The notes under the pieces are model-generated. The model did no database searches and was not told the origin of the DNA. It saw only the letters and a program-made list of their open reading frames with translations. DNA of 64,000 nt from an uncultured Ignavibacteria bacterium (GTDB lineage: Bacteria; Bacteroidota; Ignavibacteria; UBA10030; UBA6906). Shown piece after piece: positions 28,874 through 35,701 of the stretch (positions are counted from its first letter, which is position 1; the number at the start of each line of letters is the position of its first letter). Location of the stretch: the NCBI GenBank assembly GCA_963701735.1, contig CAVPBI010000001.1:7729-71728 (forward strand), written 5' to 3'. A program made the translations under genes and the position numbers.

Positions 28874-29018
28874 AAGCGCACGTCCATACGACTTCCCGCC
28901 TGGTCGACGGGAACAGCCGTGGCCGGATCCTGGTCACCCTCCACAGAGTGAGGGGGAGAGCAGGTCTTCTTCTGACGCTGCAGTGTCGAACACGCCACTG
29001 GAAGAACCCGAGGAAACA

Positions 29019-30884
29019 ATGAGAACACGCTCCGTCCACCTTGCACCCGGGATACTTGCTGCCCTCCTCCTCACGGTGGCCCCGGGAGTCGCATTGTCCC
29101 AATACACGGTGCGGTCGCCCTATCTTATGGACCCGACGCTCGCGATCGGATACGTCGACAGTTGCGCCACATTCTGGGAAAAGGCCTACGATTCACTGAA
29201 CGGCGGATTCTTCACGAACATCGGCCGGTCGGGAAACGTGAAGACCCCATACGACAAGTATCTCCTGAGCCAGACGAGAAATGCCTACGGTTTCGTGCGG
29301 GCGTTCATGCTGACCGGTCAGGAGCGGTATCTCACGATGGCCCGGCGGGCGCTCGACTTCATGTACCGGCACCACTGGGACACCACACGTGGCGGCTGGA
29401 TCACGATGGTCGACCGGTTCGGTGGCCAGACAAGCGCCGGCTGGCAGAAGACGGCGTTCGACCAGCACTATGCTCTGCTGGGACCTTCTGCCTATGTCGA
29501 GGCCACCCAGGACACGCTCGACTGGGCGTGGCTGAACGATGGCTACGAAAGCAACGAGACACACCTCTGGGATTCCGGCCCGACCTCCGAGGGGTACTTT
29601 GACAACGCCAGTGCCGACTGGTCCGTCCGTACCGGGAAGAGCTTCAATGCCACAGTGGATGCCGTGACCACCCACCTGCTCACCATGTATCTGATGACGC
29701 AGGATGCGCTGTATGCGACGCGGCTGAAACAAATGGCCGATCAAATGGTCCAGCGGTTTGCGGGAACGATGGGTCAGCAACGCATCGGTTTCGTAGAGAT
29801 GTTTTCCACCGATTGGAGCTGGAGCAACACTACTGCGAACAACAACACCAGGACGATCATGGGGCATGTGCTCAAGACCGCATGGTGTCTGGGGAGGATT
29901 CATCAGCTGTTTCCTGATCCGCTGTACGTGGCGACGGCCGAATCGCTCATGAATGATGTGCTGGCAAAAGGATACGATCATCATTACGGCGGCCCGTACA
30001 AGGACTATGACCGTGTGACAGGCGAGATGTTCATGTACGGGCAGGACACCGCGAAAGCCTGGTGGCAGATGGAACAGGCGATCACGGCGGGTCTGATGCT
30101 GTACGAGATCACGAAGAAGGAATCCTATCTTGCGGCGGCCGATGCGACCGTCGATTTCTTCATGCGGTACTTCGTCGATCACGTCTATGGCGACGTGTAC
30201 TCTGACCGTTTCCGGAATGGCGCCGCCATTACGGCATGGGGGAACGACAAGGGCAATGCGTACAAGGCTGGCTATCACTCGATTGAGCTGGGGTATTATC
30301 TCTACCTGTATGGCAATCTCTTCGTCAGGGGCCTGCCGGTTACACTCTACTACCGGTTTCAGGCGCTCGACGAGGAACGCGAGATCAGGTTGAACCCCCT
30401 TGCGTACTCCTCGCCGAAGTACAGGATCCAGCACGTGCTTGCCGACGGCACGGAGTACACGGAGTTCGATGCCGCGAACCGCACCCTCCACCTGCCTCCC
30501 GGAACAGGAGGGCTATTCGCGGTGAGATACGAGCCGGTGCTGACCGGGACAGGTTCACTGGCAGATGGTGCCCCGCAGTCAATCAGGCTGCTGCAGAATT
30601 TTCCCAATCCCTTCAATCCGGCCACGACAATCCGGTATGCGCTGCCAGAAGCGGCAGTGGTGAGGCTGGCGGTATTCAACGCTGTTGGTCAGCGTGTGGC
30701 AGATCTGGTGGATGAGACACAGGCGGCAGGGTACCACGAAGTGCGGTTTGACGGGTCCTCGCTCTCGTCGGGAGTGTACTTCTACAGGTTGCAGGTCCGC
30801 CCTCTGGAGTCCGCCATCGGGCGTGACTCCAGGAGCGAAGCGGGTGATTTTGTGCAGACAAAGAGGCTTCTGCTTTTGAAATAG
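29019..30884 (+). CDS. AGE-family epimerase/isomerase-like protein (N-acylglucosamine/cellobiose 2-epimerase fold) with signal peptide and T9SS CTD
   Basis: DSLNGGFF, QTRNAYGF, GHVLKTAW, WWQMEQA, KAGYH motifs; QNFPNPFNPAT CTD. Confidence 0.8.
   Translation: MRTRSVHLAPGILAALLLTVAPGVALSQYTVRSPYLMDPTLAIGYVDSCATFWEKAYDSLNGGFFTNIGRSGNVKTPYDKYLLSQTRNAYGFVRAFMLTGQERYLTMARRALDFMYRHHWDTTRGGWITMVDRFGGQTSAGWQKTAFDQHYALLGPSAYVEATQDTLDWAWLNDGYESNETHLWDSGPTSEGYFDNASADWSVRTGKSFNATVDAVTTHLLTMYLMTQDALYATRLKQMADQMVQRFAGTMGQQRIGFVEMFSTDWSWSNTTANNNTRTIMGHVLKTAWCLGRIHQLFPDPLYVATAESLMNDVLAKGYDHHYGGPYKDYDRVTGEMFMYGQDTAKAWWQMEQAITAGLMLYEITKKESYLAAADATVDFFMRYFVDHVYGDVYSDRFRNGAAITAWGNDKGNAYKAGYHSIELGYYLYLYGNLFVRGLPVTLYYRFQALDEEREIRLNPLAYSSPKYRIQHVLADGTEYTEFDAANRTLHLPPGTGGLFAVRYEPVLTGTGSLADGAPQSIRLLQNFPNPFNPATTIRYALPEAAVVRLAVFNAVGQRVADLVDETQAAGYHEVRFDGSSLSSGVYFYRLQVRPLESAIGRDSRSEAGDFVQTKRLLLLK
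30795..30839 (+). repeat. 45-bp in-frame palindromic element in the T9SS CTD (VRPLESAIGRDSRSE)
   Basis: Absent from the closely similar CTD at 35409-35654; contains ctggagtc-cgcc-atcg-ggcg-t-gactccag. Confidence 0.85.
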
Positions 30885-30934
30885 TATCACCTGATACCAG
30901 GTGTCGGTGGGTTTATAGTTTACGATCTCGTCTC

Positions 30935-31741
30935 TCAGGAGTCAAGCGGTACCAGGTCGAGGTACTGCTTGACGACTGAGGGAGCGAGACGGATGATACG
31001 GGAGATGACCTCGGGATCATCGAATTTGGTTGATAAGAGCCTGACGGATTCGAAGTCACGGATGTAGCGCTCCACGGCTTCTCTGGAGTGGTTGGTTTTC
31101 GTGCAAATGGTTGGTGTGAGATAGCCCTTGAGGTGAAGGGCAATGATCACACGTTTGTGCGTCTGGCCGCCGCCAATAAGCTGGATGTTGCCGCGAGTAG
31201 GGAGGGATCGGTTGTACAGATTCTGGTACTCGCGGACGCAGACTCCAACGGTGACGGTGGTGCTCGCCAGGAGAACGGCGAGATCAAGCTGAGAGAGCAG
31301 CGCCCCCTGGTCGTAGGCTTGGTGTGTCCAGCGCTCGATCTTCTTCATCTTGAGTTCGTGAGCGCCTACAGGGGTTTTCAGGCCTTCAATATCGTCGTCG
31401 GTGATCATGTCGAGGACCACCGGCTTGAGTCTGGTCTGGGCCATGGATTTGCCCTTCTTGGGGTACTCGTCGACTGGGACAGCATGCCAGACGATCTGTC
31501 CCTGCTTCAGGAACGAATTGTCCTTGTAGCGGTAGTACTGCTCGATGAGGGCGAGCAAATCATCGATGATGGCGGAGGCAGTGACAGCGCCCTTATCGTA
31601 GCCGTAATGGTTCAGGAAGCGGTCTAGGACGATGTGCTTCAGAGATTTGCCCTTCATGCGCTTGTACTCACGAAAGGCGTCGGCAGCAGGCGAATGATCG
31701 CGGGTGTCCCTGGGGATGAAGCGTAAGTTCTTTGCAATCAT
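30935..31741 (-). CDS. DUF1670-like HTH protein (element ORF B)
   Basis: AYDQGALLSQLDLA, LPTRG..IGGGQTHK, HSREAVERY; ATGA overlap with ORF A. Confidence 0.85.
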   Translation of the reverse strand: MIAKNLRFIPRDTRDHSPAADAFREYKRMKGKSLKHIVLDRFLNHYGYDKGAVTASAIIDDLLALIEQYYRYKDNSFLKQGQIVWHAVPVDEYPKKGKSMAQTRLKPVVLDMITDDDIEGLKTPVGAHELKMKKIERWTHQAYDQGALLSQLDLAVLLASTTVTVGVCVREYQNLYNRSLPTRGNIQLIGGGQTHKRVIIALHLKGYLTPTICTKTNHSREAVERYIRDFESVRLLSTKFDDPEVISRIIRLAPSVVKQYLDLVPLDS

Positions 31742-32520
31742 AGCGTTCGGCGCCCCCTTTTTTTAGGGGTCTGGAGGATCCGCTTGAGCTCTCGGCTTGT
31801 TGCGTGTGCCTTGAGGAGCTTGAGGTACTCATTGATCAGGCGGACGGAGAAGCCAGTGGAAATGCGGATTTGGTGGACGGAGAAGCCCTTCTTGTGGAGT
31901 AAGGCGACACGGGCGAAGTCCTGGATGTAGCGTTTGATGGCGGTCTCGGAATGCTTTGTGCGCCGCTCGATCTCGGAGAACTGGTAGCCGGAGAGATAGA
32001 GCTCAAGGATCTGAGTCTTGTGGGTCTGTCCGCGACCCATCTCGTGACGCCAGCCTCGCGAGGGGAGGATGATCCCCTTTTTGCGCATCGAGCTCATGTC
32101 GCGCTTGATGGTGACGACACTGCACGTGAGGATGAAGGCAATATCCTCATAGGACAGGACGCCGCCTTGATCGATGGCTTCGTTGGTGATGCGGACGATC
32201 TTGTGCTGCCTGAGACCATGGAGCCCGGACTTGTTGTAGACCGGGAGGTCTTCCTCAGGGTTGTGCAGCGTTAGCTTGACGGAGACCTTCTTGCAGAGAG
32301 CAATAGGCTTGCCAGCGGGCTCGTTCTCGTCGACGGCCAGATACTGACACTGACCCGAGCCGAGCTGAACCTCGGCATGCTGGAGGAAGTAGTCGCTGAT
32401 CTGAGAGAAGTACGCTTCAGCCAGGATCGGGGTGAGGTTGAAATCTCTGGCGATGCTCGAGATGATCGACTGCCGAACAGACTTCGACTGAAGTCGAGCG
32501 GTGAGCGGTTGATCCAACAT
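31738..32520 (-). CDS. DUF1670-like HTH protein (element ORF A)
   Basis: EAIDQGGVLSYEDIA, TIKRD, LPSRG..MGRGQTHK, HSETAIKRY; RBS ggagg. Confidence 0.85.
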   Translation of the reverse strand: MLDQPLTARLQSKSVRQSIISSIARDFNLTPILAEAYFSQISDYFLQHAEVQLGSGQCQYLAVDENEPAGKPIALCKKVSVKLTLHNPEEDLPVYNKSGLHGLRQHKIVRITNEAIDQGGVLSYEDIAFILTCSVVTIKRDMSSMRKKGIILPSRGWRHEMGRGQTHKTQILELYLSGYQFSEIERRTKHSETAIKRYIQDFARVALLHKKGFSVHQIRISTGFSVRLINEYLKLLKAHATSRELKRILQTPKKRGRRTL

Positions 32521-32600
32521 ATGATACCTCCGGCAAAGAGATAGTGAAAGTAACCACTTTTTGCCTAGGTATCAGGTGATACTAACCTAAAGTAGGACCG

Positions 32601-32741
32601 ATGGAGGCGGCGAAAGGGGGTAAGGATTTCGGAGTGACGGACTTCTTTCTCTGTCCTGTGTGCGGCTATATCGAGTTCCTGAAAGCACCTGACAAATGCC
32701 CGGTGTGCGGCATCCCGGGCACCAAATTTACGAAGGGCTGA
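32601..32741 (+). pseudogene. 5'-truncated rubrerythrin remnant (C-terminal rubredoxin-like domain only)
   Basis: MEAAKGGKDFGVTDFFLCPVCGYIEFLKAPDKCPVCGIPGTKFTKG*: two CxxCG motifs; di-iron domain missing; too short for the ORF track. Confidence 0.8.
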
Positions 32742-32856
32742 CGTTCGGGTCTTCGCTGGCACTGGAAGCCACACGCTCCGGGCTTTGATCCCGGGCGAGG
32801 AGAGTTGTCTTCTGCACGCCGCGGGTCGGCTGCGGCCCCAATACGACCGGGTCATC

Positions 32857-33438
32857 ATGAACTTACCGAACAAACCGTCACGCGAATCACGTGTTTGCCC
32901 ATGGTGGGTCATTCACACCTTCGACAATCCCGTCCGTCGGCTATTCCAGAATCCGGACAAGCTCCTTCAGGGGCTCATCCAACCCGGTGACACGTGTCTT
33001 GATGTGGGATGTGGGTACGGATACTTCACAATCCCCATGGCCAGGCTTGCAGGTTCCTCCGGAGCGGTAGTCGCTGCCGACCTCCAGCCAGAGATGCTTG
33101 CCGGAGTGAAGCGGCGTGCAGAGAGTTCCGGGATGTTGGCGCGAATTCGACTCCACCAGGTAGATTCTACCGGCCTTCAATTCCAGAAGACCTTCCATTT
33201 TGTCCTGGCGTTTTGGATGGTACACGAGGTACCCGACCAGGAGGAACTGTTGAGGCAGATTCGATTGTCACTTACGCCCGCAGGTCGTTTCCTGATGGTG
33301 GAGCCGATAGGACATGTCTCGCGAGCAGCATTCACTCGAACAGTCGGCGTCGCGCTACAGGCAGGGTTCACGCGAGTTGCTGAACCGCGCATTTCGTTCA
33401 GCCGGGCCGTACTCCTGACCACCGGAGGGATTGCGTAA
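32857..33438 (+). CDS. Class I SAM-dependent methyltransferase
   Basis: LDVGCGYGYF motif I, ADLQPEML, FWMVHEVPD. Confidence 0.88.
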   Translation: MNLPNKPSRESRVCPWWVIHTFDNPVRRLFQNPDKLLQGLIQPGDTCLDVGCGYGYFTIPMARLAGSSGAVVAADLQPEMLAGVKRRAESSGMLARIRLHQVDSTGLQFQKTFHFVLAFWMVHEVPDQEELLRQIRLSLTPAGRFLMVEPIGHVSRAAFTRTVGVALQAGFTRVAEPRISFSRAVLLTTGGIA

Positions 33439-33777: not shown

Positions 33778-34136
33778 TCAACAGGCAGGAAACTGACTGG
33801 TCTCCATTTCCCCCCTTGTTTGTCCCGCCTTTCACGCCTCGCCGGATCATTTCTTCTATGTAATTGATGGTGCGACAGTCCAGCCCCCGTTCACTTCACA
33901 GTGGTTCTCCTGCAACCGGTGAGCTGAGGCACCGGTCCTTCCGCTTGAGATGGCTCCTTGCGCACATGGGTGAAGAAATTGCACAGATGGGTGATAGTCC
34001 GCGTACTGGAGTCCCCTCATATTGCCTGAAAGGGCCGAATTCTGTAGATCGGTCCGTTCCTTCGTTCTGGCAGCAGATTTGCAACAGTCTGACGCTGTCA
34101 TCCATCCGGATGATCATCACCATCAGCGAGGGCCAC

Positions 34137-35654
34137 ATGCGTCTCTGGACCATAGTTCTGTTCCTCCTGGTAGCCTCCGTGGCTTCCGGGCAGGTAGGCG
34201 TCATCAGCACAAATCCGGCTCACAACTCGACCAGCGTTCCCCTTGAGGCAACGATCAGCGTGACATTCAGCGGAGAAGTCGATACGACCCTTTCATTCGC
34301 CCAGGGTGAAAACTACTTCACCAACGTTACCACGCTCCTGGGCCAATGGTGGAGCGCCGACCGCCGGACGATTTCCTTCTCGGTCGTCCTCGAGCCTTCG
34401 ACCGTCTATTTTCTCCTGATCCACAGCGCGAAACCGGTTGCCGGCGGCGGGTTCCCCGTTCCGTACTGTTTCTACTGGACCACAGCGGCAACGTTTCCGA
34501 CGGATCTCCACTCTGTGAGCGGAACGATCTTCAGCGGAGGCAGCCCGGTGACACCCGATAATGCGATTGTCGGACTGGGAGCAACCCCGTTTTCCGGCAG
34601 CGACCCTGCCTTTGTCGGGGTGGCAGTGACCAATGCCCTGGGACAGTTCACCATCCCGTACGTTGCTGACGGGACGTGGTATCCCATTGCCGCGAAAGAC
34701 GCCGACCTGAATGGCATGATCGACCCGGGTGCGGGCGACCCGCTTGCTTTCGGCGACAGTGTGACGGTGAGCGGAGCTGACGTCACCGGATTCAACATGC
34801 AGTTCTTCACATATGAGCCGGTCCGCTTCGCCGCGGCACGCGATTCCATTTCTGCAAAGGCATCGGACCTCCTTCCTCCAAACCATGAACTCCGCCAGTT
34901 CTACGGATGGCAGGTTGATTCCACCGGCGCCGCAAAGGAGTTCGACGGGATCTACACTGTCCCTGGAAGCGAGTTCCTCACTGAGATATGGATAGAGGCG
35001 TTCGGGATGCAGTACGACACTATGCCAATCTGGAACTATGGGGCCAACTATTCACGTCCCTACACAGGCCTCGCCTCCGCAGCCCTGCTGGATTCGGTCG
35101 TTGCGCGCGCGGAACGGATGGGGGGCAAGGAGTTTCGCAGGCAGGCTCCTCCGGTTGCCGGCAGCTACTTCAACGCCTATGCCCGACTAGGCGCGCTCCA
35201 CAATTCGGAATTTCGATGGATGGTGTCAGATACGAGCCAGGACTACTGGGGACTCCAGTACACATTCCAGGTCCAGGCCACGATGGATAGCAGCTACTCC
35301 GTGGCGTGGAAGATGTTCCTGGCAAGCGCCACGACGGGGGAGATCATCAATGTGACCGGTGTTGAGGAGGAAGGTCCAGCTGCGCTCCCCACATCGTATG
35401 CGCTTGCGCAGAACTTCCCGAACCCGTTCAATCCCGCAACGACGATCCGGTACGCGCTGCCGGAAGCGGCAGTGGTGAGGCTGGTGGTTTTCAACTCCGT
35501 GGGTCAGCGCGTGGCAGATCTGGTGGATGAGGCACAACCGGCAGGGCACCATGAGGTGCGGTTCGACGGATCGACGCTCTCCTCAGGAGTGTACTTCTAC
35601 AGGCTGCAAGCGGCCGATTTTGTGCAGACAAAGAGGCTCATGCTTTTGAAGTAG
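34137..35654 (+). CDS. Secreted protein with N-terminal Ig-like (Big_5) domain and T9SS CTD
   Basis: Signal peptide MRLWTIVLFLL; VISTNPAHNSTSVP..ISVTFS; CTD without the palindromic insert. Confidence 0.8.
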   Translation: MRLWTIVLFLLVASVASGQVGVISTNPAHNSTSVPLEATISVTFSGEVDTTLSFAQGENYFTNVTTLLGQWWSADRRTISFSVVLEPSTVYFLLIHSAKPVAGGGFPVPYCFYWTTAATFPTDLHSVSGTIFSGGSPVTPDNAIVGLGATPFSGSDPAFVGVAVTNALGQFTIPYVADGTWYPIAAKDADLNGMIDPGAGDPLAFGDSVTVSGADVTGFNMQFFTYEPVRFAAARDSISAKASDLLPPNHELRQFYGWQVDSTGAAKEFDGIYTVPGSEFLTEIWIEAFGMQYDTMPIWNYGANYSRPYTGLASAALLDSVVARAERMGGKEFRRQAPPVAGSYFNAYARLGALHNSEFRWMVSDTSQDYWGLQYTFQVQATMDSSYSVAWKMFLASATTGEIINVTGVEEEGPAALPTSYALAQNFPNPFNPATTIRYALPEAAVVRLVVFNSVGQRVADLVDEAQPAGHHEVRFDGSTLSSGVYFYRLQAADFVQTKRLMLLK

Positions 35655-35669
35655 TGTCAGGTGATACCA
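35652..35669. repeat. Solo (empty) copy of the element-end palindrome
   Basis: TAGTGTCA-GG-TGATACCA overlapping the stop codon; 18/20 identical to the site rebuilt by removing the 30882-32584 element. Confidence 0.75.
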
Positions 35670-35701
35670 ACTGATGAAGACCCCTGACGGGGCGATCTCA
35701 G

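Follow-up and report, generated by a model that had tools for sequence, protein, structure and literature searches.

We analysed a stretch of 64,000 nucleotides from an uncultured Ignavibacteria bacterium (contig CAVPBI010000001.1 of assembly GCA_963701735.1, positions 7,729 to 71,728; the whole stretch is called the window here). In this window, a 1711-bp element with a pair of DUF1670 genes between inverted repeats is inserted in the end of a gene whose product carries a C-terminal sorting domain of the type IX secretion system (T9SS). The target gene (28983..30884, plus strand) encodes a GlcNAc (N-acetylglucosamine)-2-epimerase-like protein (PF07221) with the T9SS sorting domain Por_Secre_tail (PF18962) and ends with ...KRLLLLK*.

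The gene pair and its inverted repeats

The inverted-repeat search detected two 17-nt arms (30882..30898 and 32568..32584) that match each other perfectly. Between them there are only two open reading frames (ORFs), both on the minus strand, namely orfA (31738..32520, 260 aa) and orfB (30935..31741, 268 aa). The stop codon of orfA overlaps the start of orfB by ATGA, and the two proteins exhibit 31% identity. Repeat and ORF searches therefore agree with the original prediction, made from the sequence alone, that perfect repeats enclose two coupled paralogues and nothing else. The assignment to DUF1670 in the original prediction was borne out by a profile search with PF07900 (OrfA: E 5.4e-60, 202.9 bits; OrfB: E 2.6e-57, 194.2 bits; gathering score 25 bits).

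Each arm contains a palindrome with a 2-bp core, GTATCA-NN-TGATAC, as had been noticed before. The core is CC in the left arm (30884-30897) and GG in the right arm (32569-32582). With up to one mismatch the pattern occurs three times in the window, compared to 0.03 occurrences expected from shuffles. The stop codon of the target gene consists of the TA of the left arm and the next G, i.e. the first G of the palindrome, and the left end thus does supply the TAG of the upstream T9SS gene, as originally stated. Non-coding sequence inside the arms comprises 36 nt (30899-30934) on the left and 47 nt (32521-32567) on the right.

Boundaries of the element and the empty allele

The search for an empty allele, proposed with the original prediction, was successful. 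Public contigs were aligned to positions 30400-33100, and one contig each of the runs X1 and X4 (from two studies) joins position 30878 to position 32590, skipping 1711 nt. At the joint two letters (AA) fit either side. We place the inserted segment at 30881-32591 (minus strand, ±2), and owing to the two shared bases 30879-32589 is equally good. Two further copies of the element in the same genome, C32 and C4, match exactly the span 30881-32591.

The empty allele reads ...CTG CTT TTG AAG TAG GACC.... The occupied allele reads ...TTG AAA TAG-TATCA... at the left and ...TGATAC TAAC CTA AAG TAG GACC... at the right. From this comparison it follows that no bases are duplicated, and that the element gives the third base of the lysine codon together with a new TAG (30881..30884, plus strand), turning AAG TAG into AAA TAG. 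The third base (G) and the stop TAG that originally belonged to the gene sit at 32592..32595 (plus strand), contiguous with ...TTGAA in the empty allele, beyond a 9-nt tail TAAC-CTA-AA (32583..32591, plus strand). This tail is part of the element and imitates the Leu-Lys terminus of the target gene, and the two bases shared at the crossover are the last ones in it. The crossover point thus falls within the final sense codon of the T9SS gene, between its second and third base, at a distance of 3 nt from the left palindrome and of 9 nt from the right one, on the outer side of both. Consequently, the repeats described originally are real but sub-terminal, and the end coordinate given with them was not correct, as the element runs 7 nt past 32584.

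A second empty allele was not obtained, since the C32 and C4 loci compared to genome G001 and the G010 loci compared to G031 were rearranged or unmatched. The element is also missing from the orthologous locus in G001, but this is no clean empty site, because its right side deviates by about 520 bp and the solo end of another subfamily is present. In the window only the C-terminal rubredoxin-like domain (PF21349) of a rubrerythrin gene remains at 32601-32741, while G001 has the full rubrerythrin gene, with about 520 bp more between the T9SS stop and the part corresponding to the rubredoxin-like remnant. The metagenomic empty allele has the same truncated flank, which makes this deletion independent of the insertion.

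The junction rule across the family

To describe the junctions in the family, 103 sources were parsed (3 copies of the genome itself, 20 genome loci and 80 metagenome loci, with few duplicate records). They yielded 87 right ends, 69 left ends and 62 elements with both ends; these counts include the few duplicates. Two intact ORFs of at least 200 aa, and exactly two, were present in 59 elements with both ends.

At all 87 right ends the palindrome is followed by a 9-nt tail of the form [T/A]A[A/T]C-NNN-NN. Its positions 8 and 9 are AA in 76 cases, CG in 10 and TG in one. The base after the tail is A (52), G (34) or T (1), and the next triplet is TAA (40), TAG (22), TGA (21) or another one (4). 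All 69 left junctions read xxA-TAG, with AAA as the last codon in 59 of them, CGA and AGA in three each, GAA in two, CAA in one, and one locus that was misparsed. Among 52 deduplicated reconstructed target sites, 34 have A and 18 have G as third codon base, and a stop codon comes next in 50. Copies within one genome differ at exactly this displaced third base, as is to be expected if it comes from the target. T9SS tails of the GC-rich source genome end more often in AAG (57) than in AAA (22). Despite this, its occupied sites always show AAA at the left.

The tail and the target codon vary together. In the 62 elements with both ends, the first two bases of the target codon and tail positions 8-9 were combined as AA/AA (52), CG/CG (3), AG/CG (3), GA/AA (2), CA/AA (1) and AA/TG (1), so that the last base of the tail equals the second base of the target codon in 61 of 62. 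All six CG-tail elements are inserted at arginine codons, at six different sites and never at lysine, and none of the 55 AA-tail elements occupies an arginine codon (Fisher probability about 1e-7 by our own arithmetic for the table 6/1 versus 0/55). The CG-tail elements may form one clade and are best read as one lineage that switched tail and target together and then inserted repeatedly. At two loci (L102 and L111) an element is inserted in the tail of a resident element from another subfamily, confirming that the tail imitates a target.

T9SS gene ends as target

Of 43 left-flank peptides scanned, 40 match Por_Secre_tail at E ≤ 0.01. The scan left out 21 loci with too short a flank and six with fewer than 30 open codons; by eye, three of these six look like decayed sorting tails and two are tails of elements. 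The sequence information at the target is limited to the coding part, exhibits a 3-nt periodicity and ends at the stop codon, with none downstream. As the minimal core T-N-A-A|R-T-R-R is far too common to account for the T9SS preference, more of the sequence coding for the sorting tail must be read. A block AAR-AAR at -20 to -15 was also seen by eye in several of the non-T9SS targets. The source genome has 132 Por_Secre_tail matches and thereby provides a large pool of harmless sites for the element.

Copies and distribution

By nucleotide comparison the genome contains three copies of the element with 99-100% identity. The C32 copy differs by 4 substitutions over 1713 nt. In the C4 copy (C4:17539-19232, L003) there are 3 substitutions and four small deletions, which comprise 1, 1, 2 and 5 nt and fuse and frameshift the ORFs. 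This copy lies at a contig end and is either decaying or an assembly error. At the C32 gene end (C32:140387-140480, L002) the last about 30 codons differ from those of the G001 orthologue (L061). The last 90 nt of this T9SS gene show 81% identity to the gene in the window, and identity falls to 50-67% further upstream; the tail sequence may have moved along with the element or may have been converted.

Relatives with 54-94% protein identity were found at 21 loci of genome bins and at 80 metagenome loci. The genome bins are mostly labelled Ignavibacteria or Bacteroidota, but also Zixibacteria, Acidobacteriota, Calditrichia and Chloroflexota. Many homologues lie on contigs of the size of the element (e.g. 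1714, 1716, 1718 and 1720 bp), the way in which repeats assemble. With its multiple copies, an empty allele and relatives across genomes, this is a real mobile element, as had been proposed. A contig from the RNA library of run X19 covers 32243-32460 with one difference, but such a library may hold DNA and the contig is no evidence of transcription.

The DUF1670 family as a whole comprises 1310 clusters at 50% identity (E ≤ 0.001), and its source names include Ignavibacteria, Zixibacteria, Acidobacteriota, Calditrichia, Theionarchaea and Actinomycetota. Fused proteins with two (about 500-550 aa) or three repeats (about 930-950 aa) contain only DUF1670 repeats and no other Pfam domain. Among 120 homologues listed, the names are 'hypothetical' or 'DUF1670 domain-containing', with a single 'transposase'. 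Our literature search, which covered the full texts of the papers in the library used, gave no paper mentioning DUF1670 or PF07900, and judged by titles and abstracts there was no paper on an insertion sequence targeting T9SS gene ends or stop codons. The ORF sizes known for IS892 do not fit the element.

Fold of the DUF1670 proteins

In the AlphaFold model of OrfA (mean predicted local distance difference test score, pLDDT, 90.8) the N-terminal part is predicted to consist of three helices, a beta hairpin and a 30-residue helix. Next come a winged helix (residues 97-161), a conserved linker P-T/S-R-G...G-x-G-x-S/T-H-K and two more helix-turn-helix (HTH) units. Near-invariant residues are G70, D91, R110, A115, Q118, D126, T137, R155, G156, G162, H167, H190, Y198, F202 and Y232, and the motif EPAGKP is conserved in the loop between two strands of the N-terminal domain.

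Scans of both proteins with Pfam and NCBIfam gave only DUF1670 and weak HTH matches, the NCBIfam transposase models remaining at noise. Foldseek against the PDB returned nothing at E ≤ 0.001. Using VIA-align, residues 97-253 matched only winged-helix and HTH proteins (Z ≤ 6.4), including the DNA-binding domains of Tn3 resolvase (Z 5.6) and Sin (Z 5.4). The second HTH unit with the preceding P-T/S-R-G arm resembles the DNA-binding domain of Hin and the resolvases (HTH_7, E 0.0035). Modelled alone (pLDDT 93.7), the N-terminal domain gave no VIA-align match at Z ≥ 5. The best row, to IHF, has Z 4.8 with a root mean square deviation of 2.1 over 38 aligned residues, and the many HU/IHF rows of Foldseek all have E ≥ 0.13. 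This weak likeness in the model may be taken as a lead, not as a match.

Other collections gave nothing of use: PHROGs gave HTH-type matches only, the ESM Atlas only archaeal HTH_23 clusters at ≤ 0.81, and neither the protein-mode search of the plasmid collection nor the Rfam search gave a match. The best match of the sequence profile in the PDB, 8vd6, is described as a de novo designed HTH repeat (PMC12339374) and is irrelevant here. The predicted complex of OrfA and OrfB scored 0.14 against a mark of 0.32, which counts neither way.

The original prediction had reported no DDE, HUH or serine-recombinase motif, and our searches detected none either. For DDE enzymes there was no transposase match at E ≤ 1 in Pfam and NCBIfam save HTH fragments, and no RNase H-like fold among the rows listed. 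PF00239, the serine recombinase domain, was not matched, and only the HTH part resembles resolvase and Sin. Likewise there was no Y1_Tnp match, and the near-invariant residues contain no conserved His-hydrophobic-His of the HUH type. Nor was a tyrosine-recombinase domain detected (no PF00589 match), and hhalign of the DUF1670 profile with three tyrosine recombinases of the source genome gave a probability of 0.5% (E 0.13). A likeness to box II of these enzymes seen by eye (H-S-x5-R-Y with a preceding H-K) was rejected by hhalign, and the motif lies within an ordinary HTH unit.

Proposed mechanism and alternatives

The element probably belongs to a family of site-specific insertion sequences that is undescribed. 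A dimer of DUF1670 proteins, probably A with B, would bind the sub-terminal palindrome at each end, the two paralogues occupying its outer and inner half-sites and pairing the ends. In a circular intermediate with joined ends, tail and left terminus would form the core CTA-AA|A-TAG, imitating a Leu-Lys-stop gene end. Strand exchange with a real T9SS gene end (NTN-AA|R-TRR) would then take place after the second base of the last sense codon. As seen at the junctions themselves, insertion is orientation-specific and duplicates no bases. The new third base and TAG come from the element, leaving the protein unchanged, and the old third base and stop are found at its far end. One to two nucleotides of tail and target match, and the left terminus repairs codon and stop.

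As to the chemistry, we lean towards the DUF1670 pair itself cutting and joining the DNA. Nothing else fits in the element and the fused forms are made of DUF1670 repeats only, which would argue for self-sufficiency. The role of the pair as recombinase, suggested originally, is one that we also infer; the models look like DNA-binding modules only. For the more far-reaching reading the chances appear slightly below even: according to it, the pair would represent a new class of recombinase, built of HTH and IHF-like modules only, performing a conservative, homology-checked exchange inside a codon and reprogrammed by two bases of the tail. That the target can be reprogrammed via these bases is suggested by the natural switch from AA (Lys) to CG (Arg).

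Several observations weigh against the proposed mechanism. An empty allele was seen directly at one locus only, in contigs with short sides of 28 and 44 nt, and the locus counts are not phylogenetically independent. In 4 of the 87 right ends no stop follows the tail, and 3 of the 43 flanks scanned are not T9SS tails. The gene tail at C32 suggests that recombination may have spread at least one copy together with its flanking DNA. No circle junction was seen among the 146 loci: the pattern of tail plus left end, which would mark a circle or a tandem, had a single match, and this locus (L088) is a truncated remnant. Finally, no catalytic domain or motif came up in the Pfam, NCBIfam, Foldseek and VIA-align searches, and the modelled proteins look like architectural DNA binders, so that a host enzyme could do the chemistry.

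In this alternative, element, target and junctions are the same, but the role of the DUF1670 proteins ends with binding, bending and pairing the DNA and picking the target, and an enzyme of the host or of another element cuts and joins. It would account for models in which only HTH and winged-helix units and a small, weakly IHF/HU-like domain are predicted and no nucleophile-bearing catalytic fold was detected, and the four tyrosine-recombinase matches in the genome could in principle be recruited. However, since the family occurs in distant lineages, the recruited partner would need to be present universally. No other domain comes with the fused forms, and the crossover site is like no host recombination site known to us. 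We regard recruitment as rather unlikely. It is quite improbable that the element moves as a single strand in the 'peel and paste' manner of IS200/IS605, with the palindromes as hairpins, the left flank ..NTNAA as target and cleavage site and the tail ..CTAAA as right site. Such a process would explain the missing duplication, the conserved left flank, a right end resembling the target, sub-terminal palindromes at unequal distances from the cleavage points and an unconserved, loop-like 2-nt centre. A loop of 2 nt is too short, however, the left end has no room for a guide sequence, and no HUH/Y1 domain was found in Pfam and NCBIfam. Moreover, in L047 one position differs between the outer and inner half-sites and is not compensated, and GTATCT occurs uncompensated at several ends. 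These changes fit duplex half-sites read by a protein better than hairpins.

The two mechanisms considered in the original prediction do not agree with the empty allele. One was an exchange in the 2-bp core of the palindrome, with the palindrome TAGTATCA-GG-TGATACTA as target. A solo palindrome after a paralogous T9SS stop (35651-35672) seemed to speak for it, but it keeps the inner flank CCA. Furthermore, the empty allele (...TTG AAG TAG GACC...) contains no palindrome, the crossover lies outside the palindromes, and the core dinucleotides vary between the ends and are not complementary (CC/GG, GG/TT, AA/TT, GA/CC, CC/TT and AA/CC), which leaves this exchange hardly credible. The other was cut-and-paste transposition, in which 15-bp inverted repeats would form the termini and insertion would duplicate a TA, in line with the TA that flanks both palindromes in this copy. 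We give it as little credence, since the skipped segment has 1711 nt and not 1699 + 2, no bases are duplicated, the tail is conserved sequence of the element and is followed by TGA in 21 of 87 right ends, and no DDE domain was found in Pfam and NCBIfam. A pattern search of the genome for the empty sites that these two mechanisms called for gave no meaningful match to either.

Relation to known mobile elements

IS110/IS1111 elements insert with site and orientation specificity and without duplication, possess sub-terminal asymmetric inverted repeats and a core common to donor and target, and use multicopy conserved targets. The element described here shares all of this, its core being short. 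In contrast to them, it has no DEDD/RuvC-like transposase detectable with Pfam and NCBIfam and no non-coding space for a guide (bridge) RNA, Rfam giving none, and its target is the end of a coding gene. Conservative insertion with a 2-nt crossover step that has to match between donor and target is reminiscent of IS607 and the serine integrases, and the second HTH unit of DUF1670 resembles the DNA-binding domain of Hin and resolvase. This likeness in the exchange step concerns behaviour, not membership: no serine-recombinase catalytic domain was found in the pair, and three CG-tail elements reside at AG targets, so that only one of the two bases must match. Overall, the behaviour of the element is like that of IS110/IS1111, IS607 or an integrase, but no enzyme of these systems was detected.

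With IS200/IS605 it has in common the lack of a duplication, the fixed left flank, the target-like right end and the sub-terminal palindromes. It differs in that Pfam and NCBIfam gave no match to an HUH tyrosine transposase, its palindromes act like half-sites in duplex DNA, and two large HTH proteins are present instead of one small TnpA. Phages and integrative and conjugative elements (ICEs) with tyrosine recombinases integrate at the 3' ends of tRNA genes and replace the displaced end, which keeps the gene intact. Similar to such attP x attB integration, the core of the element mimics conserved host sequence and insertion at the 3' end leaves the gene intact. However, the replaced part is only 4 nt here, PF00589 and hhalign (0.5%, see above) give no indication of a tyrosine recombinase, and more than 100 paralogous gene ends per genome are targeted rather than one locus. 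IS1397 and ISKpn1, which target repetitive extragenic palindromic (REP) sequences, and Tn7 at attTn7 also use abundant or conserved harmless sites, as the element does, by means of DDE transposases and with target duplications. The site of the element lies, in contrast, inside the last codon of a coding sequence and is not duplicated.

If DUF1670 does the chemistry, it would constitute a class of recombinase unrelated to the DDE, HUH, DEDD, serine and tyrosine enzymes, which to our knowledge account for the known insertion sequences. Even with a recruited host enzyme it would be unusual that an element inserts in the last codon and repairs codon and stop by its own terminus, and that the coding sequence of a protein-sorting signal, present more than 100 times per genome, serves as a safe landing site. 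The covariation of tail and target codon suggests a simple rule for retargeting. The element also explains why isolated palindromes and short remnants occur behind T9SS genes of these bacteria, and annotators should be aware that DUF1670 pairs are mobile DNA.

Other DUF1670 subfamilies and solo ends

Other DUF1670 pairs were examined for palindromic inverted-repeat ends, as had been proposed. Pairs of four further subfamilies (L043, L046, L047 and L145) are bounded by other palindromes, again with a spacer of 2 nt, and lie directly next to a T9SS ...K*/R* end. Their palindromes include GGACA-NN-TGTCC as well as GTGTCA-NN-TGACCC, which is paired with GGGTCA-NN-TGACAC. A short tail and then a purine follow in L043, L047 and L145, with the stop next in L043 and L047. 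No inverted-repeat ends were found in L035, L142, L144 and L146, the contigs of which may be cut. The ORFs run in the direction of the T9SS gene in L043, L046 and L047, but are convergent with it in the family of the window and in L145. With respect to the polar ends (A-TAG side and tail side), the gene cassette is thus inverted between subfamilies, as one would expect of a segment that can flip between its inverted repeats.

Solo palindromes resembling such ends stand directly after T9SS stops at window positions 35651-35672, at C26:361175, at C11:8370 and in the G001 orthologue (L012). The last three are solo GGACA-NN-TGTCC-CCCC sequences behind T9SS genes ending in Arg or Lys, and they match the ends of the L043/L046 subfamily. 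The sequence in the window (TAG TGTCA-GG-TGATAC CA, plus strand) lies at the stop of a paralogous T9SS gene (33864..35654) and is probably the remnant of an older insertion. As the inner flank CCA is kept, it looks like what remains of a left end and not like a rebuilt target.

Arrays of elements were observed at one T9SS gene end each in L102 and L111, where an element of the GGACA subfamily is followed by a GTATCA element in its tail. In L102 a fragment resembling the left end of a third subfamily comes next. In the window, the ribosome-binding site and start region of orfA (32521-32534, GGAGGTATCATATG) contains a GGTATCA half-site and is itself conserved across the family, which suggests a possible autoregulation.

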